Of a stretch of 64,000 nucleotides of DNA, positions 139-37,968 are shown in pieces. Under the pieces are notes generated by a model. The model was not told where the DNA came from. It did no database searches and saw only the letters and a program-made list of their open reading frames with translations. The stretch covers positions 97,024 through 161,023 of the forward strand of contig JBIKUX010000001.1 in assembly GCA_044347345.1 (NCBI GenBank), written 5' to 3'. Numbering within the stretch: position 1 is the first letter of the stretch; each line of letters starts with the position of its first letter. The translations under genes were made by a program, and so were the position numbers. This DNA comes from Bdellovibrionota bacterium. Lineage in GTDB: Bacteria; Bdellovibrionota_C; UBA2361; JBIKUX01.

Positions 139-3100
139 CTATGAGTTAGTATTCTGTGCGGATGCCTGATTAGGAGTTGCCTGATTAGGAGTTGCTGACC
201 CACTAGGGATGTTAGTTTGTGGCGCAGGGATATTCGACGCAGGGGTATTCGACGCAGGGGTATTCGGCGCAGGGGTATTACTAGTTGGTGACGGACTAAA
301 ACTTGGTGAACTGTTAGAGTAAAAATTCCTAAGCTGATCTGAACTTGCTCCTAAAACATCCCCCAGTGAAGTGCCCGGCGTTACACCTTGACCAAGGTTA
401 GTTGTGTTGATTCGGCTCATTAAACCTTGGAGTTCAGATGTAATACCGTCTGCTGGGTTCCCGTTTGGTTGAATCGCTTGATTGTTAGCCCATATACTCT
501 CTAATGACTGCTGACCAACTTCGGAATTAACACCGTTGGCAAGGTTATTAAACCAGTTAAAATACTCACCACGTAAAGGGTCGCTATATTGAGCTTGCAT
601 CTGCATATCTGTACCCAACATACCAAGCATAGCCATTCCCTCCATCGAAGCAGGTTTTTGACCTGCTGACAGCGTACCCGCTTGAACCTCTTGGGCCGCT
701 AAAGCACCTGATGCCTGATGCGCAAAGTTATTTAAAGCTGACCACCGCTCTTCACTTGCTCGCTGCTCGGCTGCTTGGTTTTGGCGGCCAGCGGCTTGGT
801 TATATCCTGCCGCTTGCCCTCCAGCGGAGAACGCTTTATTGACTTGCCCTGCTTGCTGAGCCTCTAGCTGTGCTTGCCTTTGGCGATTTGTCGTTTCAAT
901 ACCATACGTACCAAGAGCAGATGCTCCTTGCAGAAGCTGAGAAGCTGCACTGGTAACTCCTAAAACTGAGCTTATCCCAGTATTGAGTGCTGCACCCGCC
1001 GCACTACCAAGAGGTTTGTTAATAGCTCCGGCAATGGCACCTGCTGTTGAACTTAGTGCTCCCCCAAGGCTATTTGTACCCAAACCTAAATTTGCAGCTC
1101 CTACAAGAGCTGAAGTAGCTTGTGTAGCGGTTGATAGTCCAGATGTTCTTTGTTGAGCAGCAAGAGAATATTGTCTGGCTTGTTGGCCATACCCCTTTTC
1201 AAGAGCATTAGCGGCTGATTGCTCTTGTTGACCGCGCAGTCCTAAGTTACCGTAAGCAAGTGCATGAAATCCAAATTCATTTGGATCATTGCGCATTGCC
1301 TTACTATAAGCCATTTGCCCAACTGTGGCCTGATTTGAGCTAGCTCTAGCAGTTAGATCTCCAGTGTAACCTCTCCCAGCGGCGCGACCAGTTTCTTGCG
1401 CATAAGACTGAATCGATTGAGTAGCAAGAGATGCAGCTCCTGCCTTCGCCCCAAGAACTATTTGCCCTGTAACTGCCGGTACGGCAAAATACAAAGCCGC
1501 CATAAGATAGATATAATACGAATTCGTTAAATCTAAATCCATTGCGGCTCCAAGCACCATGGATTTATCTAAAATCCGCATTGTATCAAACCAGGAAATA
1601 AGATTTGAACCATTAGCTCCTAAGCTAGGAAGCGATACAGGCCCTGTTATTCCTGTTCCAAGAAGCCCTCCTCCTGCCGCTACCATCACCTTAGGTACCG
1701 CTCCTGGAGCGCAAATACCGTATGGCGGATTGACTCCAAAGGCTAGCAGTTGCGACGGACATGTTACTTGCACCATCCCATGCTGTTGCATTGACCATAC
1801 TTTTGAGAACAATTTTACTGAGTCTGAGTTATTTCCAAGCATTGCCCAAATGCTTCGCTCAAGGGTAATGCATAACGCAAAACCTACATCCCATAATTTT
1901 ACCCAAGCCCAAAATGACATCCATGTAAATAAAATTTTATGCCATCCAGGAATTAGAATAAACAAACATACAAACGGGTAAGCGATAGACAGAAGATACA
2001 TAAGTACACCTTGTACATAAGGCATCATCATGGCCCAACTGTACACCTCGGTAAAACGGGACTGAGAACCTACAGTTGACTGATATATTTCACCATAGGC
2101 TACAGAGGAAGCACCACTACTCATTCGTACATCGTATGGTTTAGGTGCTATTGAGAATTCGTTACGAAACAAATGTACTAAAATTAAATCGGTTAAAAAT
2201 GCTGCTTGACCTTCTGGTGTTAAGCCACGCACAAGAGTAGCTGGATTAAGAGCACTTAAAATAGATTGCCATCCTCCTCCAAGAATTGCTCCTATTCCTC
2301 CGGAAAGTAGATTTTCTAACTCAAGAGCATGACGAGGCCACCCATAAAACAGAGTGTACATCATAGTAATTGGACTCACCCCAGCGGGAAGACCACTGAT
2401 CATCTGATAATAAATGTGTCCAGCTTCCCAACGAAATGCATGCACCAGAAGATAAAGATACTGATCACATCTAACAGTCTCGTAGATATTCTGCCTCTTA
2501 AAATCTTCTGTTTCAATGAAAGGAAACCCTCGTCTAAAACCTCCCACTGAATCCTTACTCAAAAAATCTCTCATCGACTTGGGAGTAGGTACAGCTAAAC
2601 TAGCTAAATATTTCGTGATCAGAACATACTGCCCGCCGTTACCTGTAATAGGAATTCCTAAAATATTAGCACTAGCTTCTTCCAAAAATACAGTATCAGG
2701 TACATTTGCTCCGGTAGAGTTATTAGCAGCTACAAACTTACCCTCATCAATACCTTTCCTAAAGGCATCACCGCATTCGCTTGATAAAAAACTAGTAAAA
2801 GCATCTCTTAAATCTGCACTTGATACCTTAGCTCCAGTTATATCTTGCAGGTATTTCCACTTTAAATTAGATAAAAGCCAATGCATGTCATCTGAAGGCT
2901 CACCGCTACCCGTGACGTTACCAAGTAGATCAGTAAGAGTGAATCCTCCATTATTAACAAATTGAGGGAGGTTACTCAGTAAAGATGAAAATATACTAGA
3001 TTCTGCTCCGGGCAAGTTAAATACGCCGGTCCACCGCATCATCCATTCAACAAAATCAGACAGAAGTGTATCGTACCATACAAACAGATTTGATACACGA

Positions 3101-3657
3101 ACTTTACCAATACTACGATTAAACTGTAAATCTAATCCTAAATCTCCGAGAGTATCATAAAAATCGTAAGACCCACTTTGCACAATATTAAGGGCTGCTA
3201 AACCAGGTTCCGCATTTTTCCAAACTTCTTTCTGAGCTGCTTTTTGTCGCTGAACATTATCCTCGACTTTTGGCCCTACATTCCACCGCACACCTGCTAT
3301 GGGAATAGTATCTTGTACTAACCAATGATAAATACCTGGGCCAATTAAAAACCAAAGGTACAACTTTGGAGGGAAACCCATAGCCATCCCAATTATTCCT
3401 GAGATAACAGCTATAGTATAAATTAGTATAGCCCAAGTTCCTAACCCACCTTGAGTAATATAAGAAAGAATATCAGCCTGAACCCAGTATCCTTGAGTGG
3501 CAAGCGCGGCAGTTTGAAGATGAAAAACTGAAGCTGGACAAGAACTGGGACCTCCTGGAGTAGAAGGTATGCAGTTTGAAGAGTCTGCAATAGATTGCAC
3601 ATCTACTATAAAGGAAAGTAAAGTTGCAAAAAACGTAACAAATGCGTCCGCTATCAC
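139..3657 (-). CDS. Large polytopic membrane protein (1172 aa) resembling the TraG N-terminal domain of F-type T4SS mating-pair-stabilisation proteins. Two blocks of TM helices flank a periplasmic region; the C-terminus is Gln/Ala/Gly-rich with Thr-Pro-Ala-Ser-Asn pentapeptide repeats. The gene runs toward the left edge of the window.
   Basis: Single uninterrupted 1172-aa ORF. N-terminal hydrophobic helices (GTWAILIYTIAVISGIIGMAMG, LYLWFLIGPGIYHWLV) and a second TM cluster around residues 560-720. Low-complexity C-terminal third. Operon context with TraF/TraU-like genes. The TraG_N assignment is from architecture and memory of the family, not from an alignment. Confidence 0.4.
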   Translation of the reverse strand: MIADAFVTFFATLLSFIVDVQSIADSSNCIPSTPGGPSSCPASVFHLQTAALATQGYWVQADILSYITQGGLGTWAILIYTIAVISGIIGMAMGFPPKLYLWFLIGPGIYHWLVQDTIPIAGVRWNVGPKVEDNVQRQKAAQKEVWKNAEPGLAALNIVQSGSYDFYDTLGDLGLDLQFNRSIGKVRVSNLFVWYDTLLSDFVEWMMRWTGVFNLPGAESSIFSSLLSNLPQFVNNGGFTLTDLLGNVTGSGEPSDDMHWLLSNLKWKYLQDITGAKVSSADLRDAFTSFLSSECGDAFRKGIDEGKFVAANNSTGANVPDTVFLEEASANILGIPITGNGGQYVLITKYLASLAVPTPKSMRDFLSKDSVGGFRRGFPFIETEDFKRQNIYETVRCDQYLYLLVHAFRWEAGHIYYQMISGLPAGVSPITMMYTLFYGWPRHALELENLLSGGIGAILGGGWQSILSALNPATLVRGLTPEGQAAFLTDLILVHLFRNEFSIAPKPYDVRMSSGASSVAYGEIYQSTVGSQSRFTEVYSWAMMMPYVQGVLMYLLSIAYPFVCLFILIPGWHKILFTWMSFWAWVKLWDVGFALCITLERSIWAMLGNNSDSVKLFSKVWSMQQHGMVQVTCPSQLLAFGVNPPYGICAPGAVPKVMVAAGGGLLGTGITGPVSLPSLGANGSNLISWFDTMRILDKSMVLGAAMDLDLTNSYYIYLMAALYFAVPAVTGQIVLGAKAGAASLATQSIQSYAQETGRAAGRGYTGDLTARASSNQATVGQMAYSKAMRNDPNEFGFHALAYGNLGLRGQQEQSAANALEKGYGQQARQYSLAAQQRTSGLSTATQATSALVGAANLGLGTNSLGGALSSTAGAIAGAINKPLGSAAGAALNTGISSVLGVTSAASQLLQGASALGTYGIETTNRQRQAQLEAQQAGQVNKAFSAGGQAAGYNQAAGRQNQAAEQRASEERWSALNNFAHQASGALAAQEVQAGTLSAGQKPASMEGMAMLGMLGTDMQMQAQYSDPLRGEYFNWFNNLANGVNSEVGQQSLESIWANNQAIQPNGNPADGITSELQGLMSRINTTNLGQGVTPGTSLGDVLGASSDQLRNFYSNSSPSFSPSPTSNTPAPNTPASNTPASNIPAPQTNIPSGSATPNQATPNQASAQNTNS
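223..279. repeat. Tandem 15-bp repeat (gcagggRtattcgRc), about 3.8 copies, inside the 3' end of the TraG-like gene. It encodes the N-T-P-A-S/P pentapeptide repeats.
   Basis: Direct reading gives gcagggatattcgac / gcaggggtattcgac / gcaggggtattcggc / gcaggggtatta. A second 2 x 15-bp repeat (cctgattaggagttg) lies at 165-194. Confidence 0.85.
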
Positions 3658-3813
3658 AACAATAATACCTCACGATACTAGAAAACCAAGATGAGCAACT
3701 TGAAAATGATTTGACTACAAATAATTTCAAGATCAGTTAATCTATATCTTCTAGTTCGACTAACAATCGGTATAGCTTGAATCAGAATTAAATTATCTAA
3801 TAGAAATTAAATT

Positions 3814-5619
3814 CTAATTTCCATTTCTACCAAATGAAAGTTGGGTACCACTACGACCCTTTTCAGCCTCACATTCTTCCAAAATTTTAGTAACTAAAGG
3901 CTTGATCTTATCTAACTCTGTAAATATTTGTTGGTCAGTAGATAAGCCTATTCGGTGCGCAAATAGCTTTTCTACGTCAGGAATAAGTGCTTCAAGGCCT
4001 GAAATTTGCTTCATAAAACCCAGAGTATCGAGCTTTAATCCATAAGAATTATTTAGTGCTACACCTTGTGCAAACTTGATAAGGCTATTGACTCTAAGTG
4101 AGGCGGATAAATCACCATTTTGACTCACAGTATCCCAATTAAGTGGACCATCTGGTGCAAATAAACCACACATCATCGATGAGCCTGAGCCTCCGCCATT
4201 ACTAGAATTCCCGCCATTTCCGTTAGGTACCCCTCCTGAAGACCATCCATCGTCAGTATTACTATTGGAACTTTTACCGAAATTTATACTAATTGATTCT
4301 CCTGCTGTTGGCTTACGAGAAGCCCCCCAAGGAGGGCGTGCGGCTCCTGTCGATGAGGAAGAGCCCTGACTCCAATTATTACTTAATGGTGGCAAGAAAT
4401 TTGCGAGTGAATTACTTCTTCCTGTATCACCACCACTTGATGAGGAGGTAGTGCGAGCAGCAGTATCATCTGAAAATCTGGTATAAACACACTCAGCTAT
4501 ATCAAGAAAACCTCCAACCCCTTGAATTTGAAGTCGCCTTAGCCTTTTAATGTTTTCAGGAGAGCCGTACGCTCCCATTTTAAGTCGAGCTGCTACAAGT
4601 AAAGAATCATCGTTACCCGCTGTAGCTGAAGAGATGCATCTTGCACTATTTTGATCAAACACCCCATGGGTCTTTACATTTACAGGTTCGTTTTCGCAAG
4701 CACATCTAGAATAAAGAATTGCCAGCATGTCTTCATAAGCCACCTTTGCTAAAAGGCGACGAAGTGCCTTAGGGTTATTATCGTCAACTGCAAGTAGGGG
4801 TGCTACTAGAAATAATTTATATTTATTATCTTCGGTAGCAGAGGGAATTTCTTCTTTACACATATCGCCAACAAAATTAAGCATTCTGTCAAGCTTTTCC
4901 TCAACTTGCGCACGCGCAATATCTATTTCATCAGGTCCTATACCACTCTCGTTCTGCCTAACATTTATCCACGCTCTAACCATATTTGAGGTACATATCG
5001 CTCCTGGTGGTGCACTTTCCCCACTTGGCAATCTGGTAATATCTATTGTTTCACCCCCTCCCTGCGGTTGACTTGGGTCATTTACTGTTTCATTAGGATT
5101 TGTAACGCAAGAATTTTGGATCTCACTAATACTGATATTAGGGTCTCTTCGTCGACCTTCTTGAATACAAGTGTCAATTGCTTGCTGATAAAACCTAGCT
5201 TGCTCTGGGCCTTGAGTCCTCTCTATGTAAGCAATTAAATCACCTATCTGAACTTTAAATGAGTTTTGCTGATTAACAAAATTCGCTATCGTACTTTGTT
5301 CAGCATTAGAAATAGCCGGCGCTACTAAACTTTTAGTTAGTGCAGTATCTACTAACGACTGATTAAGAGGATTTCGTGCATAAGGCAGATTACCTCCCAA
5401 TGAAGAAAACTCACAGTTACCAGATGCCTCATCACATTGAAAGTTAGATCCATCATTAGTAGTTGGTAAGGTGTCAGCTGGATTAGTAGTAGAATCCTCT
5501 GCTACCGCAAAATTATTAACAATTACTAGTAGGTAAAAACTTACCAAGCAAAGCTTTAACAGATATTTTCTTGGTGAATGGATAACGTTAAACGGAAGTT
5601 TTTTTGGCATGTTCTTCAT
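3814..5619 (-). CDS. Secreted Cys-rich protein (601 aa) with a Gly/Ser/Asn-rich insert; possible TraN- or TraH-like F-type T4SS periplasmic/outer-membrane component.
   Basis: N-terminal signal-like hydrophobic segment (LLKLCLVSFYLLVIVNNFAVA). About 12 Cys spread over the mature protein. A roughly 100-aa S/G/N-rich region (SSSSGGDTGRS...GGNSSNGGGSGSS). Co-oriented in the operon between the TraF-like and TraG-like genes. Confidence 0.3.
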   Translation of the reverse strand: MKNMPKKLPFNVIHSPRKYLLKLCLVSFYLLVIVNNFAVAEDSTTNPADTLPTTNDGSNFQCDEASGNCEFSSLGGNLPYARNPLNQSLVDTALTKSLVAPAISNAEQSTIANFVNQQNSFKVQIGDLIAYIERTQGPEQARFYQQAIDTCIQEGRRRDPNISISEIQNSCVTNPNETVNDPSQPQGGGETIDITRLPSGESAPPGAICTSNMVRAWINVRQNESGIGPDEIDIARAQVEEKLDRMLNFVGDMCKEEIPSATEDNKYKLFLVAPLLAVDDNNPKALRRLLAKVAYEDMLAILYSRCACENEPVNVKTHGVFDQNSARCISSATAGNDDSLLVAARLKMGAYGSPENIKRLRRLQIQGVGGFLDIAECVYTRFSDDTAARTTSSSSGGDTGRSNSLANFLPPLSNNWSQGSSSSTGAARPPWGASRKPTAGESISINFGKSSNSNTDDGWSSGGVPNGNGGNSSNGGGSGSSMMCGLFAPDGPLNWDTVSQNGDLSASLRVNSLIKFAQGVALNNSYGLKLDTLGFMKQISGLEALIPDVEKLFAHRIGLSTDQQIFTELDKIKPLVTKILEECEAEKGRSGTQLSFGRNGN

Positions 5620-5632
5620 TTAGAATATGACT

Positions 5633-6925
5633 TTATTTTGATTGAGACCTTTGCATCACATTTATAATTTCATCTAGAAAAAACCATTCACGATGCCCAA
5701 CCTCTGTCCATACTGTTTCACTATTTGGAGAGAAAAATACAAAAGTAGGAGCACTTCGAACGCCAATACCTTTCGCTACCTTTGTGCCTACTCGCAACGG
5801 CAATTTTATTTCTAACACCCTAGCAAAACGCTGAAAATCACCAGATGCTACGGAATCAAGCGACAAACCGACCGTTACAACTCTTGAATCGTCTTTACGC
5901 TTTTGCGCTAAGATATGCATAGCCTTGAGGGCTTTATGCGATTTAGGATCTTTCATTCGAAAAAAGAGAAATAACGACACTTTACCGTCTTTCGCAGACG
6001 GTAGCTTATGTAAGTACTCTCTCTGTATAAGATTTCTAATCGAGGCTTCATCAACAGCCTGATCTTTGCCAAGTCTTACATTACCAAATTTTTTTGTTTC
6101 TAGGTCGTCATCACTTTTTAAATATTTCTCTGTACTAAAATTAAGACGTTTATCCTCTTCAGCCTCTGCAGCAGCAAGAATATCTCTTACATGACCCGCT
6201 AATTTTGTTCCGTAAGCTACTTCTAGATTATTAGTGATATTTTTGGCTGCTCGCTCTTGTTCGAGCAATTTTCTTACTCCATCATATTCAGGATCTTCTT
6301 CATTTAATTTTGATTCAGGGCTAATACCTTCTGCGACTTTTGCAACTTCTTGTAATTTTGTAGCAAATGCTACTCTATTTTGTACATCCTGTAAATAACG
6401 CACAAATTGTCTGGCGTACTTAATAGCTAAATCATCTCTTCCTTCTTGCATAGCAATCATCATCGCCTTAAATGGCTTAGGTGCTTTTTCATCAGCTAAA
6501 ACCGGTGCATCTTCTTCCGGCTTGCCGGAAAGTTCTATGAGTCTTTCTTCTAATGTCTGCTCTTTTATGTCATTCTTCCCATCTGTTTCTTTCTCGGTAA
6601 AACCTTCTTCTTCAGTCTCATCAGATATAGGAATATCAGGATTTTCAGGAGGAAGAATGTGCACTACAGGCTTGTCAGTTAGCGAAGTTGCTGTAGCTGA
6701 AAACGGTGATTCAGCAGATCCGTGCAAAAAGAAATCCTTAGAGGCTCCACCGTTACCCTTACCACGAAGACTTTGCTCAAATGATGATAAATTATTTATT
6801 TTTGAATCAGCAGCACAGAAGTGCATAGCAAATAAACTACTCACAACAGTCATAATGAGTACCAATGCTAGAGTTACGCCTTTTTGGCGCCTTATAGTAA
6901 ATGACTTAAGTTTCACTCCTTTCAT
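5633..6925 (-). CDS. TraF-like periplasmic thioredoxin-fold protein (430 aa). It lacks a CxxC motif and carries a roughly 250-aa acidic/coiled N-terminal extension.
   Basis: Signal peptide (VTLALVLIMTVVSSLFA). The C-terminal ~110 aa (GKVSLFLFFRMKDPKSHKALK...VTVGLSLDS...IGVRSAPTFVFFSPNSETVW) matches the layout of the F-plasmid TraF family: a thioredoxin fold with Asp-Pro in place of CxxC, an SLDG-like strand, and the cis-Pro loop region. The N-terminus is rich in E/K/D. Confidence 0.45.
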   Translation of the reverse strand: MKGVKLKSFTIRRQKGVTLALVLIMTVVSSLFAMHFCAADSKINNLSSFEQSLRGKGNGGASKDFFLHGSAESPFSATATSLTDKPVVHILPPENPDIPISDETEEEGFTEKETDGKNDIKEQTLEERLIELSGKPEEDAPVLADEKAPKPFKAMMIAMQEGRDDLAIKYARQFVRYLQDVQNRVAFATKLQEVAKVAEGISPESKLNEEDPEYDGVRKLLEQERAAKNITNNLEVAYGTKLAGHVRDILAAAEAEEDKRLNFSTEKYLKSDDDLETKKFGNVRLGKDQAVDEASIRNLIQREYLHKLPSAKDGKVSLFLFFRMKDPKSHKALKAMHILAQKRKDDSRVVTVGLSLDSVASGDFQRFARVLEIKLPLRVGTKVAKGIGVRSAPTFVFFSPNSETVWTEVGHREWFFLDEIINVMQRSQSK

Positions 6926-7162
6926 CCAAAAAAATAATCTAATTAATAAAACCTAAAAGCCAGTACGAATTAATTTCCCTTACTCTCATCTAATCTAATT
7001 CAATCTATTCGAATTTTGCGCCTTCTCTAAACTCTCTAATGGTTAACTATTTAAAATAGTTATCATAAGCTACTTGGTAATCGTTTACATTAAGGGTCGG
7101 AAAGAGACCCCCTTAACTTTACGCTAGTCATGCCAGATTAGTATTTTTCTAAAATAATTTAG

Positions 7163-7813
7163 TTATTTAGGCCTATCTGTACCTGCTAATTTATCCGGAA
7201 TTATAAATTTCCCATCTGCTGTAAAAAATAGTTCGGGATTTGAAACTCCCTCTAAAATATAAGTTCCACCCTTTATCGTTACAATCCAGCTAGGGACTTT
7301 TTCAACAGGAATTTTGTCAGGTAAGCGAGATACTAATTTAACACGATTCACAATTTCAAATAGAGCCTGGCGTCTATCTATAGGGTCGGTTTTCTCAATA
7401 ATAGATTGGAAAAAAGGCATTACTTCTTCAGGCCTACCAAAAAGATAGAAAGGCTCAACGTAACTCTTTGTTTTTAAAATAATATCAGCAAAAAAGTTGA
7501 TATTAGCCTGTAAGGACTGAACATCTAAGCCACTTAACACGGCTCCAAAACCAATTACTTCATAAGCCTGCTTGATATCTTTAGAATTTAGAACTGTAGA
7601 TGTAACAACTATTTCACTTTTGTTACTATTTTCTTCTAAGGGAGCCTCAAGCTCAGTAAAATTAGTACTCTTGCTGGAAGAGGGTTGAGATGCAAAATTC
7701 TTTTTAAAAAATGAGTCTGGCCTTTCTTGTGCTTTTACTTTTTGATTAATAAAAGACCACACTATTATTAGTATTAAGCGTATAAAATACGGCGTACTTT
7801 TTCCTCTATTCAC
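7163..7813 (-). CDS. Secreted protein (216 aa); size and position fit a TrbC/TraW-like F-type T4SS periplasmic protein.
   Basis: Signal peptide (FIRLILIIVWSFINQKVKA). 8-bp overlap with the upstream gene, which implies translational coupling. Length is close to F TrbC/TraW (about 210 aa). No motif-level support. Confidence 0.25.
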   Translation of the reverse strand: MNRGKSTPYFIRLILIIVWSFINQKVKAQERPDSFFKKNFASQPSSSKSTNFTELEAPLEENSNKSEIVVTSTVLNSKDIKQAYEVIGFGAVLSGLDVQSLQANINFFADIILKTKSYVEPFYLFGRPEEVMPFFQSIIEKTDPIDRRQALFEIVNRVKLVSRLPDKIPVEKVPSWIVTIKGGTYILEGVSNPELFFTADGKFIIPDKLAGTDRPK

Positions 7814-9200
7814 AACTTTTCCTATCGAGAATAGGGCAAGTAGAAGCTAATACAACCCGCATGCCTGCAGGCTTTTCCGTAAACTTTATCCAATGAGTAG
7901 AAACCCACTCTGATTGCTCTTTAGGCATACCTTCACCAGCGGTTAAAACGGTAAACCCTGGCTCTATAGATAAGCACTGATTGTCATTAATATCATCTTT
8001 GTTATGAGCATGATGAATTTGCCATTTATCGCTCGATATTTCTTCGGGCGAGCGAATAGCATAAGTCCAGCCTTCAAGATTGCACATGACATTTGTTGTG
8101 TTCTGTGAGCCCGCTAAAGCTGCACTAGCTGTACCTCTAGAATTGTACCTAGCTCCCACAGGCACCTTACAACCGGCTAAACCTTTGCCAAAGGCACCAG
8201 CAGAAAACTCTTTCAAATCTTCTTTTTTTATATAGGGGTTACCGATACTCTTCGCGTTATAATTAATTACTTCTTGATTATAAATGCGATTCTTCTCACA
8301 AATCATGGGATCTTTAGTTAAGACTTCCTTAGTTAACTCTTTATATTTATTACTTATCATAGCTGTAGTAGCGTAAGTGCCAAGATGTGCAGGAAGATGC
8401 CTAAATTCATAAGATGAAGCATAAGTACCAACTTCACATTTTTTTAATTTAATACGAAGAAGTGGGTTTGGATTACTTATCTGGCGAGTTATGGGGCAAA
8501 TTGCAGAACACCATGCAGTGTTTGGTCCTTTAAAAAGAAGCTTCATTGCATCTTTCTTTTTATTCAGAGTATCTGCCACAACAGAAGCCTTAATGTTCCA
8601 AAATCTAGTTACGGGAGCCAGGCCTTTTTGAGTATTTGCTACATTTAATGAAGTAAACTGTGTAAAAAGCTCTTGCTCATAAAGTGATGTTAAAAAGGGA
8701 GGATTTAAAATAGCACTTTCAGCAATTTTTTTTTCAATATTCATTAAGACAGATGGAATAAAACCGCTAGTATAAGGCGTATTAGAACATACCATAGTAG
8801 TTGCAGGAGCTCGTCCATTCGGCATTGGCTTTACAGCCACTCCACCAAACAAGCCGCCGGTAAGTCCTACAGCCCAACACTGAGGATTATATGCAACACA
8901 CGGGTCAAAGGGATTTATAGATTTAACAAAAGTTTCACCAAAAACTCGTAGATTATTAGCTGTTACTTCAGGAAAAGAAGCGCCGTTAGCATATTTTATT
9001 TCTGTTGGAACTTCTGAATTGACAGGAACGGTCTTAATTTTTTCTCTAAGCTCCTTAACTGTAGGCTCCAAATCTTGTTCATACTTTTTTGTGGCTTCGC
9101 TATTATCTGCAAAAGAAACGGTAGGAACTACTACGAAAAAAACTACTAAAAATAAACAATAAAGCCTCGCTTGAATGGAGCTTCTAATATTCATCTCCAT
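7806..9200 (-). CDS. Secreted Cys-rich protein (464 aa); possible TraU-like F-type T4SS periplasmic component.
   Basis: Signal peptide (LYCLFLVVFFVVVPTVSFA). About 12 Cys in the mature part, including NPFDPCVAYNPQCWAVGL, which resembles the N-terminal Cys/Trp cluster of TraU. Overlaps both neighbours by 8-10 bp. Confidence 0.3.
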   Translation of the reverse strand: MEMNIRSSIQARLYCLFLVVFFVVVPTVSFADNSEATKKYEQDLEPTVKELREKIKTVPVNSEVPTEIKYANGASFPEVTANNLRVFGETFVKSINPFDPCVAYNPQCWAVGLTGGLFGGVAVKPMPNGRAPATTMVCSNTPYTSGFIPSVLMNIEKKIAESAILNPPFLTSLYEQELFTQFTSLNVANTQKGLAPVTRFWNIKASVVADTLNKKKDAMKLLFKGPNTAWCSAICPITRQISNPNPLLRIKLKKCEVGTYASSYEFRHLPAHLGTYATTAMISNKYKELTKEVLTKDPMICEKNRIYNQEVINYNAKSIGNPYIKKEDLKEFSAGAFGKGLAGCKVPVGARYNSRGTASAALAGSQNTTNVMCNLEGWTYAIRSPEEISSDKWQIHHAHNKDDINDNQCLSIEPGFTVLTAGEGMPKEQSEWVSTHWIKFTEKPAGMRVVLASTCPILDRKSCE

Positions 9201-9991
9201 CCTCTGAGTAAAAAGATGGTTTTCATGTCGGTGTGCATAATTCCCCGCCCATGTGGATTTCCATCATAATTTTTTAAAGCATCTCCACCCCTTGAAATAT
9301 AAAGAGCTCCAGCAACAAGCCTCGAACGATACGGTAAGCATCCTACCTGTGAAACCAAGCCAGCAATTGTTTGAGATACGCTATCCTCTTTATCGTTGGT
9401 ATAAACGTAAACAGAAGTTTCTATACCAAATGCTTCAAGAGGTTTTAGGGGAACATCGCCAGCATGTACGTAAAGATAATCAGAGATAACTTCATTTGAT
9501 ACTGGAACTCCCCTAATTGGTATTTTTTCAGTGCTAGATTTATTACAGGTAGATATATGGGGTAGAGGCGGTAATGATTGAACTTCTCTCTTAAATCGCT
9601 CTTCAGCAGCTTTTGCTAAAGCTAAACCCTCTCTTTCATATACCTCAAAAGCCTCTGGAGAAAGACGATAAGGAGCTTCTACTTCATCTTGAGTCGGTAA
9701 AGTATCTCCATTACGCCCCAAAATTTTACCTACAATAACTAGATTGGAGAGCTCTGCGGGCAGAAATTTATACTTCTGCTGTACAGTCTTAACCATTCTT
9801 GTTAAACCAAGAGCAAAATCCCTCTCTTCTTGAGAAAGATTATTAAGCGACTGCTCTATTTCACCAGATTGAGCGTAAGCTAATGGTATTAGCGCAGAAA
9901 ACTGGGTAAAAATCATTATACATGAAATTACAAGCCAGAGTTTTTTTATGTAACGATAGCTAATCCACCTTACACTAAACATTAGCACCAT
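9191..9991 (-). CDS. Secreted or membrane-anchored protein (266 aa); first gene of the tra-like operon inside the window, function unknown (TraW-like?).
   Basis: N-terminal hydrophobic segment (LWLVISCIMIFTQFSALIPLAYA). 10-bp overlap with the next gene. Located 126 bp downstream of the gcvP stop codon. Confidence 0.25.
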   Translation of the reverse strand: MVLMFSVRWISYRYIKKLWLVISCIMIFTQFSALIPLAYAQSGEIEQSLNNLSQEERDFALGLTRMVKTVQQKYKFLPAELSNLVIVGKILGRNGDTLPTQDEVEAPYRLSPEAFEVYEREGLALAKAAEERFKREVQSLPPLPHISTCNKSSTEKIPIRGVPVSNEVISDYLYVHAGDVPLKPLEAFGIETSVYVYTNDKEDSVSQTIAGLVSQVGCLPYRSRLVAGALYISRGGDALKNYDGNPHGRGIMHTDMKTIFLLRGWR

Positions 9992-10117
9992 AATATCGTT
10001 AAGGAGAATTCTTAGCTTACTAATTAAAATTTGTTAAAAACTAAGATACCATCATCGGTTATTAAATCTGTAATCGGCTCCAAGCCTACGTTTCTTAAAT
10101 AACAAGAACCTTAACCC

Positions 10118-13000
10118 TTAAGAGTCAAGCGGTTCACAAGAACAAACTAAATTTCTATCACCATAAGCCGCATCTATTGCACCCACAGCAGGCCAAAACT
10201 TATTTATCCTGGTTCCAGAGGTAGGAAACACCGCTTTTTCGCGAGAGTAAGGATGTGACCATTCAGTAGAACTTACAACGGCAAAAGCAGTATGAGGGGC
10301 ATTAATTAAAGGATTATCAGCCCGTGGCCAAATACCCTCTTCTATCATCCTAATCTCTTCACGAATTGAAATTAAAGCCTCGCAATACCGATCAATTTCA
10401 TCTTTGCCTTCACTTTCAGTGGGCTCAATCATCATTGTTCCGGGAACTGGCCAAGAAATAGTAGGTGCATGAAATCCATAATCCATTAAGCGCCGAGCAA
10501 TATGTCCAACATCTACTCCTGCAGAATTTTTAAAAGCCCTACAATCAAGAATACATTCATGAGCTACAAAACCCGACTCACCTCTGTAAAGCACCGGATA
10601 CGCTCCCTCTAACCGCTTTACCATATAATTTGCATTAGCTATCGCTACACAACTGGCTTCTCTTAATCCTGTTTGACCCATTAATGCAATGTACATCCAC
10701 GAAATCGGAAGAATACTCGCACTACCCCAGGGTGCAGATGAAATCGGACCAATAGCTTGATCGTCACAATCATGAGTAGCAACTAAAGGATGTGAGGGAA
10801 TAAATGGAGCTAAATGCTCAGCTACAGCGATAGGACCCATCCCCGGGCCTCCGCCACCGTGAGGAATACAAAAAGTTTTGTGTAGATTAATATGACAAAC
10901 GTCCATCCCTAGCTCAGCAGGCGCCACTAAACCAACTAATGCGTTTAGATTAGCGCCGTCCATATAGACCTGCCCTCCAAATGAGTGAATAATCTCACTT
11001 GCCTGAAGCACTCCTTTCTCAAACACTCCGTGAGTGGATGGATATGTAATCATCAAAGCCGCTAAATTACTGGCATGTAATTCAGCCTTTCTACGCAGGT
11101 CAGAGATATCTATGTTACCTTCGTCATCACAATCAATTACCACCACTTGAAACCCCGCCATAATCGCACTTGCGGGATTAGTTCCGTGAGCTGATTTTGG
11201 AATTAAGCATACCAAGCGATGCCCTTCACCTCTAGCTTGATGATAAGCGCGTATAACTAGTAATCCTGCGTATTCTCCCTGCGAACCGGCGTTTGGTTGA
11301 AGAGACACGGCCTTAAAGCCCGTTATCTGCGCCAAAGACTCTTCCAAATCACTAAACAATTTCTTATATCCTCGTACCTGATTAGCAGGAGCAAAAGGAT
11401 GAATAGAAGAAAATTTAGACCACGATACCGGAAGCATTTCTGCTGACGCATTTAATTTCATCGTGCAAGAACCCAAGGGTATCATCGAGTGACAAAGAGA
11501 CAGGTCTTTTGCCTCAAGTCGCTTAATATAGCGTAAAAACTCACTCTCTGATCTATAACGATTAAAGACTTCCTGCTTCAGGTAAGGACTAGTTCGAACA
11601 ACATCAGTGCTTAGACAATCATCAATGTAAACATTTAGCGGAATAAGAGTAGCACCACAAACTTCAGCTAAATCAAAAAGGTCTTGTTCACTTACAGTTT
11701 CATCGAGCGAAATACTAACATCATTATTTGCAAGCACACGTATATTTATTCGTTTGCGAGCTGCGGCTTCAATAATAACTCTTGCTGTATATGGTGAACG
11801 CGGTGTAAATGTTACCGTATCAAAAAACGAACTAGCATACATGCTATGACCAACCGCTTTTAACGATGCAGCAAGGCGCTTAGCATACCCATGAACTCTG
11901 TCTGCTATTTGCCGTAACCCTTCTGGTCCATGATAAACAGCATACATTCCAGATATAACTGCAAGTAATACCTGTGCTGTACAAATATTACTGGTGGCTT
12001 TTTCCCTTCTGATATGTTGCTCTCTAGTTTGCAAAGCTAACCGTAACGCAACACCACCAGAAGCATCTTTAGATACCCCGACAAGACGCCCCGGAATCAT
12101 TCTCTTAAACTCATCAGTGGTAGCAAAAAATGCTGCATGGGGGCCACCATATCCGATAGGAACACCAAATCGTTGCGCACTCCCAACTACAACATCCGCT
12201 CCGCATTCTCCAGGCGAAGCTAAAATTGCTAAAGACAAAAGATCGGCACTTACGACTGCTAAAGCCCCTATCTCTTTAATTCGCTGAATTCTTGGAGACA
12301 AAGGTTTTACCTCACCTAAAGTGCCAGGATATTGCAGTAGTACCCCGAAAACTCTTTGACCTTCAGATATAAATAGATGGTCGTCTCCAACTATTACCTC
12401 TATACCTAACGCCTCAGCTCTGGTGCGAACTACAGCAATTGTTTGCGGATGACACTCTGCTGAAATAAAAAAAAAGTTCTTGGTGCTATTACTCCGAGCG
12501 CTAAAACAAAGGCTCATAGCTTCAGCTGCCGCTGTTCCTTCATCGAGAAGAGATGCATTTGCTAACTTCATTCCAGTTAGCTCACATATCATTGTCTGAA
12601 AATTGAGCAGAGCTTCCAGACGACCCTGAGATATCTCAGGCTGATAAGGGGTATATTGGGTGTACCAGCCAGGATTCTCAAAAATGTTTCGACTAATCAC
12701 TGGGGGAGTTATAGTGCCGTAGTATCCAAGTCCAATATAGGATCTCCACACTTCGTTTTGTTCAGCATAGTCACTGAGTCGTGCTAGAGCCTCATCTTCA
12801 CTTAATCCACATTGAGGGTTTATGTTACTCTGAGCAAAAGAGGGAAGAGACCAAGAGGAAACACGGCGTATCTGCTTTGGAATAACACAATCAATTAGGG
12901 AGTCGAGATTTTTAAATCCCAAACTCTCTACAATAGCGCTTAGATCATTTTGAGAAGATCCAATATGACGTTTAACAAAGCTAGAATGTTGATGATTCAT
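10118..13000 (-). CDS. gcvP: Glycine dehydrogenase (decarboxylating), single-chain P-protein of the glycine cleavage system.
   Basis: 960-aa ORF with hallmark GcvP regions ([57 protein letters not shown]). Confidence 0.95.
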
Positions 13001-18296: not shown

Positions 18297-19385
18297 CTAA
18301 CCTAAATTTTCCCGAAAACTGCCGCGACTACGCACTTGTCTGGCATTATACCGCTCTACAACTATAGTATCACCGTCTACTCTCGCTATCTCAGGTTCTT
18401 TAACACGACGTCGCTTACTAAAAAAATAACTAAAACCCTCCCCAAGACCACGAGTAATTACAGTCCCAATTCGTAATTGAGTTGGTTCCAAATGATGAGC
18501 AAAGATAATTCGCCCACCTCCGCTCTCATCAAAAGCTCCAGCATGAGCTACTCCACGCAAAGCTCCCAGGACTATTATATCGCCACCAGCAACTACATCC
18601 GCGCCAGAATTGACATCGCCTAAAATAATTAGTGAATGCTCAGTTTCAATTCTTTGTCCTGATCTTAAAGTAGCAAAAACTACTCTAGCATCAGGTTCAT
18701 CCCACAACTCTGATTCATTACCTACACCAAATTTAAGCCCAATGCCTCTACTACTACTATCGCCTAGAGAACTGCTACTAGCTCTTTCACCTACCGCAGG
18801 CTTTTGCTCCGAATTACCGCGCACAAATCCAAACATATGACCGACCCCATCAAAAATAGTCCGAGTGGAGCCGCCTGAGTTAGAAGCGCCTTCTATCTCT
18901 TGATTTGGTAGCTCTTCTACCAAAGAATCGCGACGCCTTGGAGTCAAAACCTCGAGAGTTACTTTACGAGATGTAACCATTCCGGATGAATTTATTGATC
19001 TTAGAGCAGAGCTTTCTGAGAAATTAGATTCTGCGCTAGTTATGTCTCTAGGGAGTAGTTTCTTCTCTTCGGTTGTATTACTAACGGCATGACGGAATCG
19101 CACTGTTTCGACAATTATACGATACTCTTCTTCGAGCAGATTAGAAAAATGTTCTGCTAATTCCGGCGAAGCCTCCTTACCTAACCACTCAATCGTTACT
19201 CGCTGACCTTCAAGAAAACCCCTTCTAACGGCCATAAACTCCCGTAAGGCGTCCTCTAATGTCTTGGTGTCACGACGCCCATCCAAACGGAGGACAAGCC
19301 CTTCTGTGGTACCCCTTGCGCTTACTACCGATTGGTAATCACGAATGGTCTCTTTTGAGTCCTTCAAGATAGATTCCTTATTCAC
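18297..19385 (-). CDS. minC: Septum formation inhibitor MinC, with an extended N-terminal/linker region (362 aa).
   Basis: The C-terminal beta-helix region (ILGDVNSGADVVAGGDIIVLGALRGVAHAGAFDESGGGRIIF) is typical of the MinC C-domain. Sits upstream of minD. Confidence 0.8.
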   Translation of the reverse strand: MNKESILKDSKETIRDYQSVVSARGTTEGLVLRLDGRRDTKTLEDALREFMAVRRGFLEGQRVTIEWLGKEASPELAEHFSNLLEEEYRIIVETVRFRHAVSNTTEEKKLLPRDITSAESNFSESSALRSINSSGMVTSRKVTLEVLTPRRRDSLVEELPNQEIEGASNSGGSTRTIFDGVGHMFGFVRGNSEQKPAVGERASSSSLGDSSSRGIGLKFGVGNESELWDEPDARVVFATLRSGQRIETEHSLIILGDVNSGADVVAGGDIIVLGALRGVAHAGAFDESGGGRIIFAHHLEPTQLRIGTVITRGLGEGFSYFFSKRRRVKEPEIARVDGDTIVVERYNARQVRSRGSFRENLG

Positions 19386-19687
19386 GATAAAACTTTTTTA
19401 ACCTGTACTTCACCTTTACTTTTTTTTAAGCCTGCTGGTTACTATCTAACTCGAGCTAGTGCCCAACTTAGTCAGATAAGAAAATCAGTCTGTATTTGAG
19501 TTGGTTTTGTAAACCCTATTTAAAACTTAAACTTTAAGTTGCTTATACCAAACGGACAGCGCATGGGTCAACGGGATAATTTTAATCTATGTTAGACTAA
19601 GAAAACGCGAAGACTACCGTTGTCCCGCCTTTAGTGAGCTTTAACCAATCCAAATAAGTCTTGGTTTAACTTTTTTAGGACGTTGTC

Positions 19688-20197
19688 ATGCACCAAACAA
19701 GAGTAAAGATATCCTCTCAACTAGCAAAAACTGTGATGAGCATCTGCTATCTCGGATATTTTACTCGAGCACCTGGTACTGTTGGATCACTAATCACAGT
19801 AATTTTTTGGCTGGGATTGTCTCATTATTGTTATTTTATTGACACCAAGCTCCTCTCTGGGCTCATGGTACTTACGGGCATAGTACTTGGATGGCTATCG
19901 TTAAACATTTACTTCCGCGAGAAGCATGATACTACGGAAAATAATTGGAACGACCCAAGCTGGGTGATAATCGATGAGTGGGTCGGAATGAGCATAGCCT
20001 TGCTTCCCTTAAGTGGAGCTTACTTTGTTGATTCAGCTATAGTGTTTTTTCTATTTAGAGTCTTCGATATATGGAAACCAGGATTTATAAAAAACGTACA
20101 AGATATTCCAGGAGCCATTGGGGTATTACTTGATGACGTGCTAGCTGGTATCTTAGCTGCGATAATCTACTGGTGCTTCAAGTTAATTTTAATATGA
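19688..20197 (+). CDS. pgpA: Phosphatidylglycerophosphatase A.
   Basis: 169 aa with a PgpA-like N-terminus (YLGYFTRAPGTVGSL) and hydrophobic helices. Confidence 0.75.
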   Translation: MHQTRVKISSQLAKTVMSICYLGYFTRAPGTVGSLITVIFWLGLSHYCYFIDTKLLSGLMVLTGIVLGWLSLNIYFREKHDTTENNWNDPSWVIIDEWVGMSIALLPLSGAYFVDSAIVFFLFRVFDIWKPGFIKNVQDIPGAIGVLLDDVLAGILAAIIYWCFKLILI

Positions 20198-21405
20198 TTA
20201 ATCTAAAGTTTTATTTTTCCCTGTTTAGTTCAAAGAACTCTCAAGCTATCCTCTCTTATTTGATTATTTTTACACTAATGTCCTCGACGATTTCAGCACA
20301 GGACTCCTCTTTTACTGAACCTGTTTTACCAAGTGTCATTGATTTATCTTCGCAGAAAAAAACAGATAAACCTTTGCAGGAAAAACCTCTCAAGAAATTA
20401 ACTGCGTCACCCTCACCACTAGTATCTTCATTAATAGATTCCGGAATTATTCAAACAAGTTTCACTCTCAGCGCTCCACCTTCAGCTACATTCGATATTT
20501 CTGGTCGAATCGCTTTTACGGCAAAAGTTAAAGATACTGAGGGTATTTTCGTGCTCGATCTCGATTCAAATACTTTTTCACCATTAATTCTCGGACCTGG
20601 TAACAACCGCTACCCAACAATTTCTCCAGATGGAAAATACATCGCCTTTGTATCCGACCGCGATGGTAACAGCGAAATATATGTTACACGCTGGGATGGC
20701 ACTTCTGTAACAAGGATTACAAAAAACTCAACTGAAGATACAGACCCAACTTGGCTTCCTCGTACTTCTGCTATCCTGTTCTCGCGAATAGCAGGTAAAG
20801 AGCCAAATATTACTACTGAACTACGAATAGCCTCACTTGTAGACAATAATCAGCAATTGACCAGCAATGAAGTCTTACTATGCAATCTTAAAGGCCGTAA
20901 TGTGAACGCGGCATGGACTCCAATTAAAGATATGGTGACCTATTCATCAAATCGTTTCTGGCCTGGTTGGGATATTTGTGGATGGCAAATTGCATCTAAA
21001 AGTGAACGATGCTTTTTTGGAGGAGATGAATCTTTCGGCAGAGCTAAATGGTCTCCTGACGGTCTTCAATTAGTCTTTTCACATGGTGATGGAAGAAATA
21101 TGAATTTAGGTCTATCACTGCTCGGCAAAAAATCTTTTTCCGATATAACAACATCGGCAGGAAACGAATATGACCCCGAATGGTCACCAAACGGAGAGTA
21201 TTTAATTTTCGTAGCGGACGGAGCGACTCAAATATATCAGCCCTATATTTTGAAACTTGAAGACCGCTCCTACAAGCAACTTTTCAAAAGCCTTTTTTCA
21301 ATTCGCTATCTTTCTTGGTCACCACATAAAACTACAGATCTTGAGATTGACAGAATTTCTCAGATGGAAAACTCCAAGGTTACTGAAGAAAATGACCTTA
21401 ACTAA
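20194..21405 (+). CDS. Periplasmic TolB-like WD40 beta-propeller protein. Proposed start is the ATG at 20194, overlapping the pgpA stop.
   Basis: Signal peptide. Repeated PDGKYIAFVSDRDGNSEIYV and SPDGLQLVF-type blades are characteristic of TolB-like propellers. Confidence 0.7.
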   Translation: MINLKFYFSLFSSKNSQAILSYLIIFTLMSSTISAQDSSFTEPVLPSVIDLSSQKKTDKPLQEKPLKKLTASPSPLVSSLIDSGIIQTSFTLSAPPSATFDISGRIAFTAKVKDTEGIFVLDLDSNTFSPLILGPGNNRYPTISPDGKYIAFVSDRDGNSEIYVTRWDGTSVTRITKNSTEDTDPTWLPRTSAILFSRIAGKEPNITTELRIASLVDNNQQLTSNEVLLCNLKGRNVNAAWTPIKDMVTYSSNRFWPGWDICGWQIASKSERCFFGGDESFGRAKWSPDGLQLVFSHGDGRNMNLGLSLLGKKSFSDITTSAGNEYDPEWSPNGEYLIFVADGATQIYQPYILKLEDRSYKQLFKSLFSIRYLSWSPHKTTDLEIDRISQMENSKVTEENDLN

Positions 21406-34158: not shown

Positions 34159-34353
34159 GAATACTGGACATTTGCCTACCGACCCATATCGGCACCCATA
34201 GCCAAGTTGAATCCAACTCAGTTAAAAATTTGTCTTCCGTAAAAAATACGGAGGCTGAACTTGTAAGGTAATTTCACTTCTACTCATAGCCTACATATTT
34301 GCTACACTCAACGTTCAACAAACTCTGCCAAAAATAAAACGGACAGACAAAAT

Positions 34354-35190: not shown

Positions 35191-35202
35191 TATTACCTAT
35201 TT

Positions 35203-36450: not shown

Positions 36451-36520
36451 CTAATAAGCCCTATAAAATAGCGAAGTATTTTTAATTAAACTTGTCCAAG
36501 TTATAAATAATTAGTGGTTC

Positions 36521-37957: not shown

Positions 37958-37968
37958 CTCCGTAGATC

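Follow-up and report, generated by a model that had tools for sequence, protein, structure and literature searches.

A chromosomal six-gene envelope operon in an uncultured Bdellovibrionota bacterium with distant likeness to the distal genes of F-type transfer systems

Six genes on the minus strand of the window (the whole 64,000-nucleotide stretch of DNA analyzed here), at positions 139 to 9991, are one envelope-directed operon. Two of the six encoded proteins appear to be detectably, and three faintly, related to F-type pilus-assembly and mating-contact proteins, and the evidence supports a fixed chromosomal module in this Bdellovibrionota lineage, not a mobile element. The cluster resembles either an old and fixed derivative that lacks an ATPase or a portion detached from a system whose parts are scattered. 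We tentatively favor, at just short of an even chance, a very old ancestry among the "F-specific" genes in the distal part of conjugative transfer operons of F type (MPF-F/MPF-G-like), with strong divergence and chromosomal fixation.

Layout and boundaries of the operon

The ORF calls agreed with an earlier sequence-only reading of this DNA, which had reported six co-oriented minus-strand genes. Their products have 266 aa (gene 1, 9191 to 9991), 464 aa (gene 2, 7806 to 9200), 216 aa (gene 3, 7163 to 7813), 430 aa (gene 4, 5633 to 6925), 601 aa (gene 5, 3814 to 5619), and 1172 aa (gene 6, 139 to 3657). An alternative start at 9916, the one used in the NCBI record, gives a 241-aa product for gene 1, and gene 2 encodes 462 aa under an alternative call. 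An N-terminal hydrophobic signal or anchor was found on all six products, consistent with the signal peptides or transmembrane (TM) helices described for each of them before. Overlaps had been reported at most junctions; only two of the five overlap (one by 10 or 4 bp, the other by 8 bp), and the remaining three are spacers of 13, 237, and 156 bp.

Upstream lie gcvT/H/P and folD. The boundary gene is gcvP (10118 to 13000, minus strand; Pfam GDC-P, 3.8e-180), whose stop codon is separated from gene 1 by 126 bp in the same orientation, as previously noted. This spacer (9992 to 10117, minus strand) may be read through or contain a promoter. Weak consensus matches in its area comprise a terminator-like hairpin (10129 to 10110) and a promoter-like site (10037 to 10008), neither class being commoner than in shuffled sequence. 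The cluster had been thought to run off the left edge of the window, with a missing proximal half possibly lying there. Instead, the last ORF, of 1172 aa, ends at 139. To its left come yebC/TACO1 first and also tatA, scpAB, dcd, and a DNA ligase gene, which refutes a proximal half on that side. To judge from the Pfam labels of the called genes, the window and about 10 kb on either side of it contain no gene for a type IV secretion system (T4SS) ATPase, pilin, core component, or relaxase, which bears out their reported absence on the right.

Relationship of the six proteins to Tra families

None of the six window proteins directly matched a Pfam or NCBIfam Tra model or reached a curated family threshold. 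For the 430-, 464-, and 1172-aa proteins, which the sequence-only reading had assigned to MPF-F families, nothing was found even at an E value of ≤10, the outcome that this reading had named as refuting it. Links to Tra families became visible only through orthologues and profile-profile comparison, in which query families built from orthologues were aligned with 14 Tra families using hhalign. With reversed templates as the null, the lowest P value in 70 comparisons was 0.086. Four of the six query families had their cognate family (TraF, TraG, TrbC, or TraW) at the top of the ranking. The hhalign probabilities for the TraW, TrbC, and TraU signals were individually weak (1 to 5%), and combining the four weak pairs, fixed beforehand by gene order, with Fisher's method gave a P value of ~7e-4.

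For the 430-aa protein, these comparisons support a TraF-like thioredoxin fold without CxxC. Its family aligned with TraF at a probability of 96.1% (P = 3.2e-9), with LFLFFRMKDPKSH paired with IMFFYRGQDPIDG of F TraF, and an FF[YF]RxxDP motif occupies the CxxC position. Both results sustain the earlier proposal of a TraF-like thioredoxin protein with D-P in place of CxxC. The TraF-like domain spans residues about 300 to 425 (roughly window positions 5650 to 6030), and the N-terminal part consists of a signal anchor and a long charged region. Weaker hhalign matches were to TrbB (2e-5), TraW (1.7e-4), DsbC (2e-4), and TrbC (3e-4), so that TraF led TrbB and DsbC by 4 to 5 orders of magnitude. Family members also gave sub-threshold matches to Pfam Thioredoxin_8, Thioredoxin_2, and TraF.

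The 1172-aa protein is the most conserved member of the cluster (31 to 46% identity in 45 ORFs), and its assignment as a VirB6/TraG_N-type polytopic inner-membrane protein is supported by layout and family matches. Two TM blocks flank a loop of about 450 aa in a conserved core (residues 1 to 760; window positions 1378 to 3657), followed by an A/G/S/Q/N-rich tail that ends in pentapeptide repeats (residues 761 to 1172; 139 to 1377). Among 18 orthologues, five matched Pfam TraG_N (best E = 1.5e-5), and in each case the second TM block was paired with profile positions 258 to 383; the scores of 12 to 21 bits, against a cutoff of 36.1, fall in hydrophobic helices, whose composition may inflate them. 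Sub-threshold NCBIfam matches were to Bacteroides TraJ (TIGR03782; four members), CD3337/EF1877 of Firmicutes (three members), and F TraG (PRK13735; two members). Four independent VirB6-type models from three T4SS classes thus weakly and repeatedly match the same block, although the TraJ and CD3337/EF1877 proteins are much smaller and belong to complete conjugation gene sets. In hhalign, TraG gave a P value of 8.9e-5, with the 13 other Tra families all above 0.04. The polytopic protein of TraG_N layout proposed earlier is supported.

Could the likeness to Tra proteins be a matter of chance and of common folds (thioredoxin, polytopic helices), in an unrelated envelope or secreted module whose gene order is coincidental? 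We consider this doubtful. The lead of TraF over TrbB and DsbC, the FF[YF]RxxDP motif shared with TraF, the convergence of the VirB6-type models on one block, and cognate first ranks under a null that never fell below 0.086 all argue against it.

The signals for the other proteins are fainter. The 266-aa protein, predicted to be secreted or anchored, has orthologues in 10 loci and no Pfam or NCBIfam match. Its family aligned best, among the 14, with the N-terminal region of TraW (P = 0.009 over 30 columns, within which the window protein has a gap), weakly suggesting a TraW-like protein. The cysteine-free 216-aa protein combines a signal peptide with a disordered linker and a thioredoxin-fold domain at residues about 80 to 205. 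TrbC was the best of the 14 profiles for its family (P = 0.0078), which supports a TrbC-sized, TrbC-like thioredoxin-fold protein; the likeness is not specific because thioredoxin folds are ubiquitous. Thus, of the proposed pair of about 210 to 270 aa with TrbC and TraW sizes, the TrbC member stood and the TraW member found weak backing.

The two proteins described as having about 12 cysteines, those of 464 and 601 aa, have 13 each. One of them had been described as having a TraU-like N-terminal cysteine cluster, and for the 464-aa protein, which carries a signal peptide, we found only hints of a possible, very distant relationship to TraU. It has two homologues among 1.84 billion representative proteins, and its family, expanded to 13 members by jackhmmer, gave a sole TraU alignment that is C-terminal and colinear (P = 0.13, then 0.067). 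One orthologue (P0035) matched TIGR03756, which we take to be a TraU-related family, in the same C-terminal region (E = 0.013; 14.8 bits versus a cutoff of 188). The AlphaFold model was unusable (pLDDT, 42.8). The 601-aa protein, which occupies the TraH position, carries a signal peptide and a low-complexity S/G/N insert, and its C terminus is helical. It is homologous to two families (c3 and c23; hhalign, 97.7% and 98.3%) located before the 1172-aa orthologue in nearly all related loci. TraH identity, which the gene order noted in the sequence-only reading would imply, was not supported: neither TraH nor any other Pfam family matched in 29 members, hhalign gave no signal against TraH (P = 0.27), and the profile found nothing among PDB sequences.

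Conservation and chromosomal setting

Orthologous loci numbered about 35, every one of them on a Bdellovibrionota/Oligoflexia MAG or a related metagenome contig. The genes for the 430-aa, 601-aa-like, and 1172-aa proteins always occur together, often with gcvP on one side and the same set of downstream genes on the other, and this gcvP-to-TonB-like/scpAB slot recurs across many related genomes, with no integrase or relaxase seen. Retention of the same slot and order at 31 to 46% orthologue identity points to long vertical inheritance under selection.

A functional tie to glycine cleavage or one-carbon metabolism, through read-through from gcvTHP, would fit the orientation shared with gcvP, the 126-bp distance, the lack of a convincing terminator, and the adjacency of gcvP in at least eight related loci (immediately before the cluster in L012, L013, L019, L021, L030, L031, L040, and L044). 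We judge it very unlikely, since many loci have the cluster without gcvP (L007, L009, L011, L015, L023, and L036 to L039) and every product is exported or lies in a membrane and matches no enzyme family.

Least probable of all is that an integrated conjugative element (ICE) lost its proximal half and is now decaying here. The presence of distal-type genes only, adjoining a core operon, and an IS110 transposase or PIN toxin gene inserted within the cluster in some distant loci speak for such a remnant. However, none of the six ORFs is disrupted, their GC3 and codon usage cannot be told apart from those of the neighboring genes, and neither an integrase nor a relaxase, tRNA, or att-like repeat was found in the inspected region. 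Native composition and the conserved slot argue against both an ICE remnant and a re-ordered ICE. Among the three scenarios offered earlier, a repurposed periplasmic module fits best.

More serious, yet still rather unlikely, is that the six genes are a piece detached from a type IV secretion or pilus system that is chromosomal, complete, and highly diverged, with its ATPase, core, and pilin genes elsewhere in the genome. Scattered T4SS parts have precedents in the vir homologues of Rickettsiales and the split tra regions of large plasmids. A Pseudomonas aeruginosa plasmid has dsbC-traW-traU-trbC about 12 kb from traL-E-K-B-V-A-C, with traF/H/G outside the 41 kb viewed. The DNA inspected here is about 84 kb of a 170-kb contig, and in F these periplasmic proteins function only in concert with the core machine (PMC7555446). 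Against a detached piece, the 442 ORFs of the approximately 35 related loci (with flanks of ±10 kb) include no relative of VirB4/TraC, TraB, TraK, TraE, or TraV, and their Pfam labels are empty or housekeeping. VirB4 is usually easily detected, even in remote systems.

Comparison with known transfer systems and proposed role

The cluster parallels traW-traU-trbC-traF-(traH)-traG, in line with the match to the distal tra operon noticed before; F, pYJ016, pLPL, and an Acinetobacter plasmid have the order traW-traU-trbC-(traN)-traF-(trbB)-traH-traG. Besides order, the cluster shares with the distal genes of these and Janthinobacterium plasmids approximate sizes, export of all products, a TraF-type thioredoxin domain without CxxC, a TrbC-sized thioredoxin-fold protein, and a large polytopic last protein in which a TM block, a periplasmic loop, a second TM block, and a long tail follow one another. 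Unlike those sets, it is chromosomal, compositionally native, and in a conserved syntenic slot; its proteins lie below every curated threshold and are 30 to 90% longer than their F counterparts; the TraH-position protein lacks TraH similarity; and TraN, TrbB, pilin, the TraL/E/K/B/V core, the TraC ATPase, a coupling protein, and a relaxase are not in view. In ICEs of the PFGI-1 class, a TIGR03756-family protein and other exported proteins precede a TraG_N-type membrane protein (PMC8895235). The distal genes of these MPF-G elements (encoding TIGR03757, TIGR03756, an ICE protein, and a TraG_N protein) differ in that integrase, relaxase, and VirB4 are absent here and the TIGR03756 match is weak; they resemble the cluster in having exported proteins before a TraG_N-type protein, and TIGR03756 is the only NCBIfam match of that one orthologue of the 464-aa protein.

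Under the ancestry that we favor, the order would read TraW-like, TraU-like (with a question mark), TrbC-like, and TraF-like; a Cys-rich partner would then take the place of TraH, and a TraG_N/VirB6-like membrane protein would come last. The 1172-aa protein, in the inner membrane, would offer a platform through its large loop in the periplasm and its long, flexible tail, and the Cys-rich 601-aa protein is probably its obligate genomic partner. The cysteine-free thioredoxin-fold proteins of 430 and 216 aa may work as noncatalytic adaptors or chaperones, a role that has been proposed for TraF and TrbC of F (PMC7555446). With the 266- and 464-aa proteins added, the result would be a complex in the periplasm, associated with the outer membrane and comparable to the F TraF/H/U/W/TrbC interaction group (PMC7555446). 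Given that no ATPase, pilin, or coupling protein is adjacent, the likeliest role of the complex, by analogy, is in contact at the level of the envelope or in the assembly of a surface structure; alternatively, it may act with motor and core parts encoded elsewhere. More speculatively, the contact might be with another cell or prey.

Gene layout and chromosomal setting of the cluster

The cluster comprises six ORFs in head-to-tail order, all intact and all encoded by the minus strand. From gene 1 to gene 6, they encode proteins of 266 aa (9991-9191), 464 aa (9200-7806), 216 aa (7813-7163), 430 aa (6925-5633), 601 aa (5619-3814), and 1172 aa (3657-139). folD and the glycine cleavage genes gcvT, gcvH, and gcvP lie upstream in the same orientation, with 126 bp between the gcvP stop codon and the first start codon of the cluster. 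Two of the five junctions overlap (by 10 or 4 bp and by 8 bp). Because the others are spacers of 13, 237, and 156 bp, the translational coupling across the cluster that was proposed in the sequence-only reading was overstated. Each product has a hydrophobic signal or anchor at its N-terminus. The 464-aa and 601-aa proteins contain 13 cysteines each, the 216-aa protein contains none, and the 430-aa protein has a single one, located within its signal anchor. The 1172-aa protein begins with an N-terminal transmembrane (TM) block, which a loop of ~450 aa separates from a second one; its A/G/S/Q/N-rich tail of ~410 aa terminates in pentapeptide repeats, for which two 15-bp tandem arrays code. These arrays, located at 163-195 and 223-279 at the 3' end of the gene, encode TPNQA-like and NTPAS-like C-terminal pentapeptides, and their length could differ among strains.

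The left flank was read from a 170-kb contig of NCBI assembly GCA_041443025.1, which contains an exact match to the 1172-aa protein; several further metagenome copies of this protein were found by exact look-up. The cluster had been thought to run off the left edge of the window. It instead ends at 139, since yebC/TACO1 and other non-tra genes lie directly beyond that edge: a DOT1-like methyltransferase gene, a TonB_2-like gene, tatA, a SpoU methylase gene, scpA, scpB, a pseudouridine synthase gene, dcd, and an ATP-dependent DNA ligase gene. No tra gene is present among the Pfam-labelled genes of this flank. The presence of yebC, tatA, scpA/scpB, dcd, and the ligase gene in that position refutes the scenario in which the proximal half of a transfer gene set lies to the left, and with it that of a re-ordered integrated conjugative element (ICE). 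The DOT1-like methyltransferase (a weak Pfam match) and the ATP-dependent DNA ligase, both uncommon in bacteria, are encoded among the housekeeping genes of this flank (6784-7500 of L002, one of the loci collected for comparison; ~22 kb left on the public contig). Housekeeping genes also fill the remainder of the window and the 10 kb past its right end, with minCDE, purD/purH, PP2C phosphatases, mutS, an amidase, ribosomal protein S1, SelO, glycosyltransferases, a TonB-dependent receptor, and metH. Three sizeable ORFs without a Pfam family are found at 26091-27341 (416 aa), 35203-36450 (415 aa), and 51610-53616 (668 aa), the last flanked by glycosyltransferases and an LPG_synthase_TM protein.

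Approximately 35 related loci were gathered from contigs with relatives of the 216-aa protein and from two scans with an alignment of the 1172-aa family, one covering one genome per species and the other metagenomes. All sources with a name are MAGs labelled Bdellovibrionota, Oligoflexia, or "delta-/Pseudomonadota bacterium"; one of them, CP129486.1, is a complete genome of 2.28 Mb. Almost all loci that span the 430-like, 601-like (protein clusters c3 and c23), and 1172-like genes keep this trio together. Upstream of it, some loci (L019, L021, L030, L031, and L036) carry the 266-464-216 genes, which are divergently arranged in L007, L009, L011, L023, and L046. The slot occupied in the window recurs in many genomes, with gcvP upstream and a TonB_2-like gene, a gene of unknown function, SpoU, scpA, scpB, and rluB downstream. 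Orthologues of the 1172-aa protein share only 31-46% identity with the window protein, which indicates that the arrangement is old and vertically kept. Among 1.84 billion representative proteins, scanned in full with HMMER, were one relative of the 601-aa protein, two of the 464-aa protein, and ~15 of the 216-aa protein, none of them matched by Pfam. Word-index searches returned one match for the 464-aa protein, five for the 216-aa family, and one for a concatenated 464+601 alignment. These proteins are rare and fast-evolving.

Were the cluster instead an ICE or the remnant of one, genes for an integrase and a relaxase, att repeats or a tRNA as target, and a foreign composition might be expected; the cluster displays none of these. 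No integrase, relaxase, or att repeats were found between about -10 kb and +74 kb in window coordinates, and no tRNA genes within the window. A comparison of composition, suggested from the sequence alone, placed the six genes within the range of 29 neighbours in GC content, GC3, and codon usage (GC3 of 0.24-0.30, versus 0.279 +/- 0.032 in neighbouring genes). Native composition, intact ORFs, a conserved slot, and the absence of integrase and relaxase genes from this region thus make an ICE remnant unlikely.

Comparison of the cluster proteins with Tra families

Pfam and NCBIfam gave no meaningful match to any of the six window proteins, and no cluster protein reached a curated threshold. At E<=10, faint matches linked the 430-aa protein to Thioredoxin_8 (E=0.097) and the 1172-aa protein to the CD3337/EF1877 mobilome membrane family (E=0.2). 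PDB sequence searches, with single sequences and with profiles, returned nothing, and a Foldseek structure search of BFVD returned viral thioredoxins only. Because Pfam and NCBIfam recognise none of the proteins, standard type IV secretion system (T4SS) scanners would miss the locus. We found no literature linking Bdellovibrio or Bdellovibrionota with Tra genes. For profile-profile comparison with hhalign, each gene was paired beforehand with a Tra family by gene order; F, pYJ016, pLPL, and a plasmid from Acinetobacter were confirmed to have the order traW-traU-trbC-(traN)-traF-(trbB)-traH-traG.

The 430-aa family aligned with TraF at 96.1% probability (P=3.2e-9, 93 columns), and its matches to TrbB, DsbC, TraW, and TrbC were four to five orders of magnitude weaker. 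In the first round, performed with three-sequence Tra profiles, TraF alone was apparent. The window segment LFLFFRMKDPKSH aligns with IMFFYRGQDPIDG of F TraF, which places D-P at the CxxC position and bears out the earlier observation that D-P replaces CxxC as in F TraF. The 430-aa protein thus has the features of a TraF: it is periplasmic and carries a C-terminal thioredoxin-like domain without CxxC that is related to that of F TraF. The threshold of the TraF Pfam family PF13728 was not reached, with one match (E=0.14) among 42 scanned members. F TraF is composed of a dynamic N-terminal part that binds TraH and a C-terminal thioredoxin-like domain without CxxC (PMC7555446). The 430-aa protein is likewise built of two parts, with a much longer N-terminal region.

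The 216-aa protein was also shown to have a thioredoxin fold. TrbC was the best of 14 Tra profiles for its family, at a weak score (P=0.0078, probability 5%), and neither TrbC_Ftype (PF09673) nor any other Pfam family matched it. Separately, the 216- and 430-aa families have in common a motif, [DS]xFFxK(D/N)xAxSP[LF], just past the signal peptide (hhalign P=6e-4, 21 columns, clean alignments), at residues about 29-49 of the 216-aa protein (7163-7813) and 59-79 of the 430-aa protein (5633-6925). It may be a docking or sorting motif. A 99.8% match between the two families was an artefact of a contaminated alignment; clean sets align in the 21-column N-terminal motif only.

The 1172-aa family was compared with a TraG profile built from five plasmids, and hhalign aligned the second TM blocks of the two (P=8.9e-5, 59.6%; 59.6-67.9% and P=5e-5 to 9e-5 across runs), although scores of such TM-region matches can be raised by composition. 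The 13 other Tra profiles all gave P>0.04. TraG_N (PF07916) did not match the window protein at E<=10. It did match 5 of 18 orthologues scanned singly (best E=1.5e-5; 12.7-21.3 bits, with a cutoff of 36.1), always through the second TM block and profile positions about 258-383. NCBIfam models matching among the 18 orthologues were Bacteroides conjugative-transposon TraJ (four), CD3337/EF1877 (three), and F TraG (PRK13735; two), all of which we take to be VirB6-type T4SS membrane proteins. In its TM-loop-TM-tail layout, the 1172-aa protein agrees with five TraG proteins. The core of the 1172-aa protein is likely homologous to the VirB6/TraG_N superfamily.

The remaining three families gave weak or negative results. 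For the 266-aa family, the TraW N-terminal region (PF12477, TraW_N) was the best of 14 at P=0.009, over 30 columns that are gapped in the window protein. The sole local alignment of the 464-aa family with TraU was a weak, colinear one at the C-terminus (P=0.13, then 0.067), and the TraU Pfam family PF06834 matched none of 12 members. One orthologue of the 464-aa protein, P0035 from L031, has by eye the W...PD.C-27 residues-W[RK]xxxC spacing of TraU, and its only NCBIfam match, TIGR03756 (E=0.013), which is presumably TraU-related, covers the same C-terminal region as the TraU alignment. TIGR03756 is an ICE family encoded beside TraG in PFGI-1-type elements (PMC8895235). An AlphaFold prediction of the 464-aa protein from a 13-sequence alignment had a pLDDT of 42.8, too low for use, and a scan of viral contigs for diverse TraU returned one locus. 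The 601-aa family, with a mean identity of about 20%, is homologous to c3 and c23 (hhalign 97.7% and 98.3%). TraH (PF06122) matched none of its 29 members, and hhalign gave P=0.27; a C-terminal alignment of c3 with TraH (P=0.091) was lost with improved profiles. Position, Cys-richness, and a helical C-terminus are the only features common to the 601-aa protein and TraH.

The cognate Tra family was top-ranked for four of the six query families. With reversed templates as the null, 70 comparisons yielded P values down to 0.086 (median 0.5), so that P values of 0.008-0.009 are outside its range. Fisher combination yielded 7e-4 for the four weak pairs (0.009, 0.067, 0.0078, and 0.27) and 5e-13 for all six.

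Missing transfer genes and reading of the cluster

No AAA_10/TraC-type Pfam label indicative of a VirB4-type ATPase was found between about -10 kb and +74 kb in window coordinates, and a TraC HMM had no match in the 442 ORFs of the ~35 related loci. The loci examined therefore do not encode with the set the TraC ATPase of a complete MPF-F system. They also lack its core and pilus genes: traA, traL, traE, traK, traB, and traV are all absent from the Pfam-labelled genes of the window region and related loci. HMMs for TraK, TraB, TraE, and TraV, built from 6-7 plasmids, had no match at E<1 in the 442 ORFs except one for TraB (E=0.08). HMMs of other Tra families likewise had no match in these ORFs, save one of TraG to a 1172-like protein.

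Read most economically, the cluster is a relative, now very diverged, of the F-specific block at the distal end of F-type (or related MPF-G) transfer gene sets, and it is chromosomally fixed in a Bdellovibrionota clade. It may be a stand-alone module or a detached part of a scattered system. The second reading gains from the existence of split F-type sets: on the Pseudomonas aeruginosa plasmid NZ_CP095924 (L050), dsbC-traW-traU-trbC (18430-21675) and traL-E-K-B-V-A-C (33210-39770) lie ~12 kb apart, which shows that a single replicon can hold such a set in separate parts. In the mechanism that we infer for the diverged F-type block by analogy to the TraF/H/U/W/TrbC/TraG group of F (PMC7555446), the 1172-aa protein would form an inner-membrane VirB6-like platform, accompanied by a periplasmic complex made up of non-catalytic thioredoxin-fold adaptors and Cys-rich partners. 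It is a tentative and rather doubtful proposal that the predatory-type Bdellovibrionota/Oligoflexia, as a phylum-level clade, domesticated the periplasmic half of an F-type machine that serves pilus dynamics and mating-pair stabilisation, as a stand-alone, TraG_N/VirB6-anchored chromosomal module without VirB4, pilin, or DNA transfer. Such a module might possibly act in cell-cell (prey) contact or in a new surface structure.

TraF, TraH, TraU, TraW, TrbC, and TraG belong to the least understood components of conjugation machines, and to our knowledge they have so far been described solely inside complete transfer systems. If the proposal is true, a sub-assembly without motor, pilin, or DNA-processing genes can function or be re-used alone. 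The cluster would then offer a natural minimal system for studying the F-specific sub-assembly, and a phylum that is known for cell-cell predation and has been little studied would gain a candidate envelope machine.

Variants among the related loci

Some genomes and MAGs contain tandem copies of the pair of 601-like and 1172-like genes. L014 (1-11609) carries three genes of the 1172-like type, two of which are paired with a partner; in L048 (452-5209 and beyond), four 1172-like ORFs follow one another. Further conserved proteins of 570-935 aa (protein clusters c56, c31, and c18), which the window's genome lacks, are encoded downstream of the 1172-like gene in L022, L023, L024, L038, and L046. 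Two distant relatives carry insertions between the 216-like and 430-like genes: a PIN/DUF6364 toxin-antitoxin pair in L007 (5074-5725) and an IS110 transposase gene in L011 (4869-5921).
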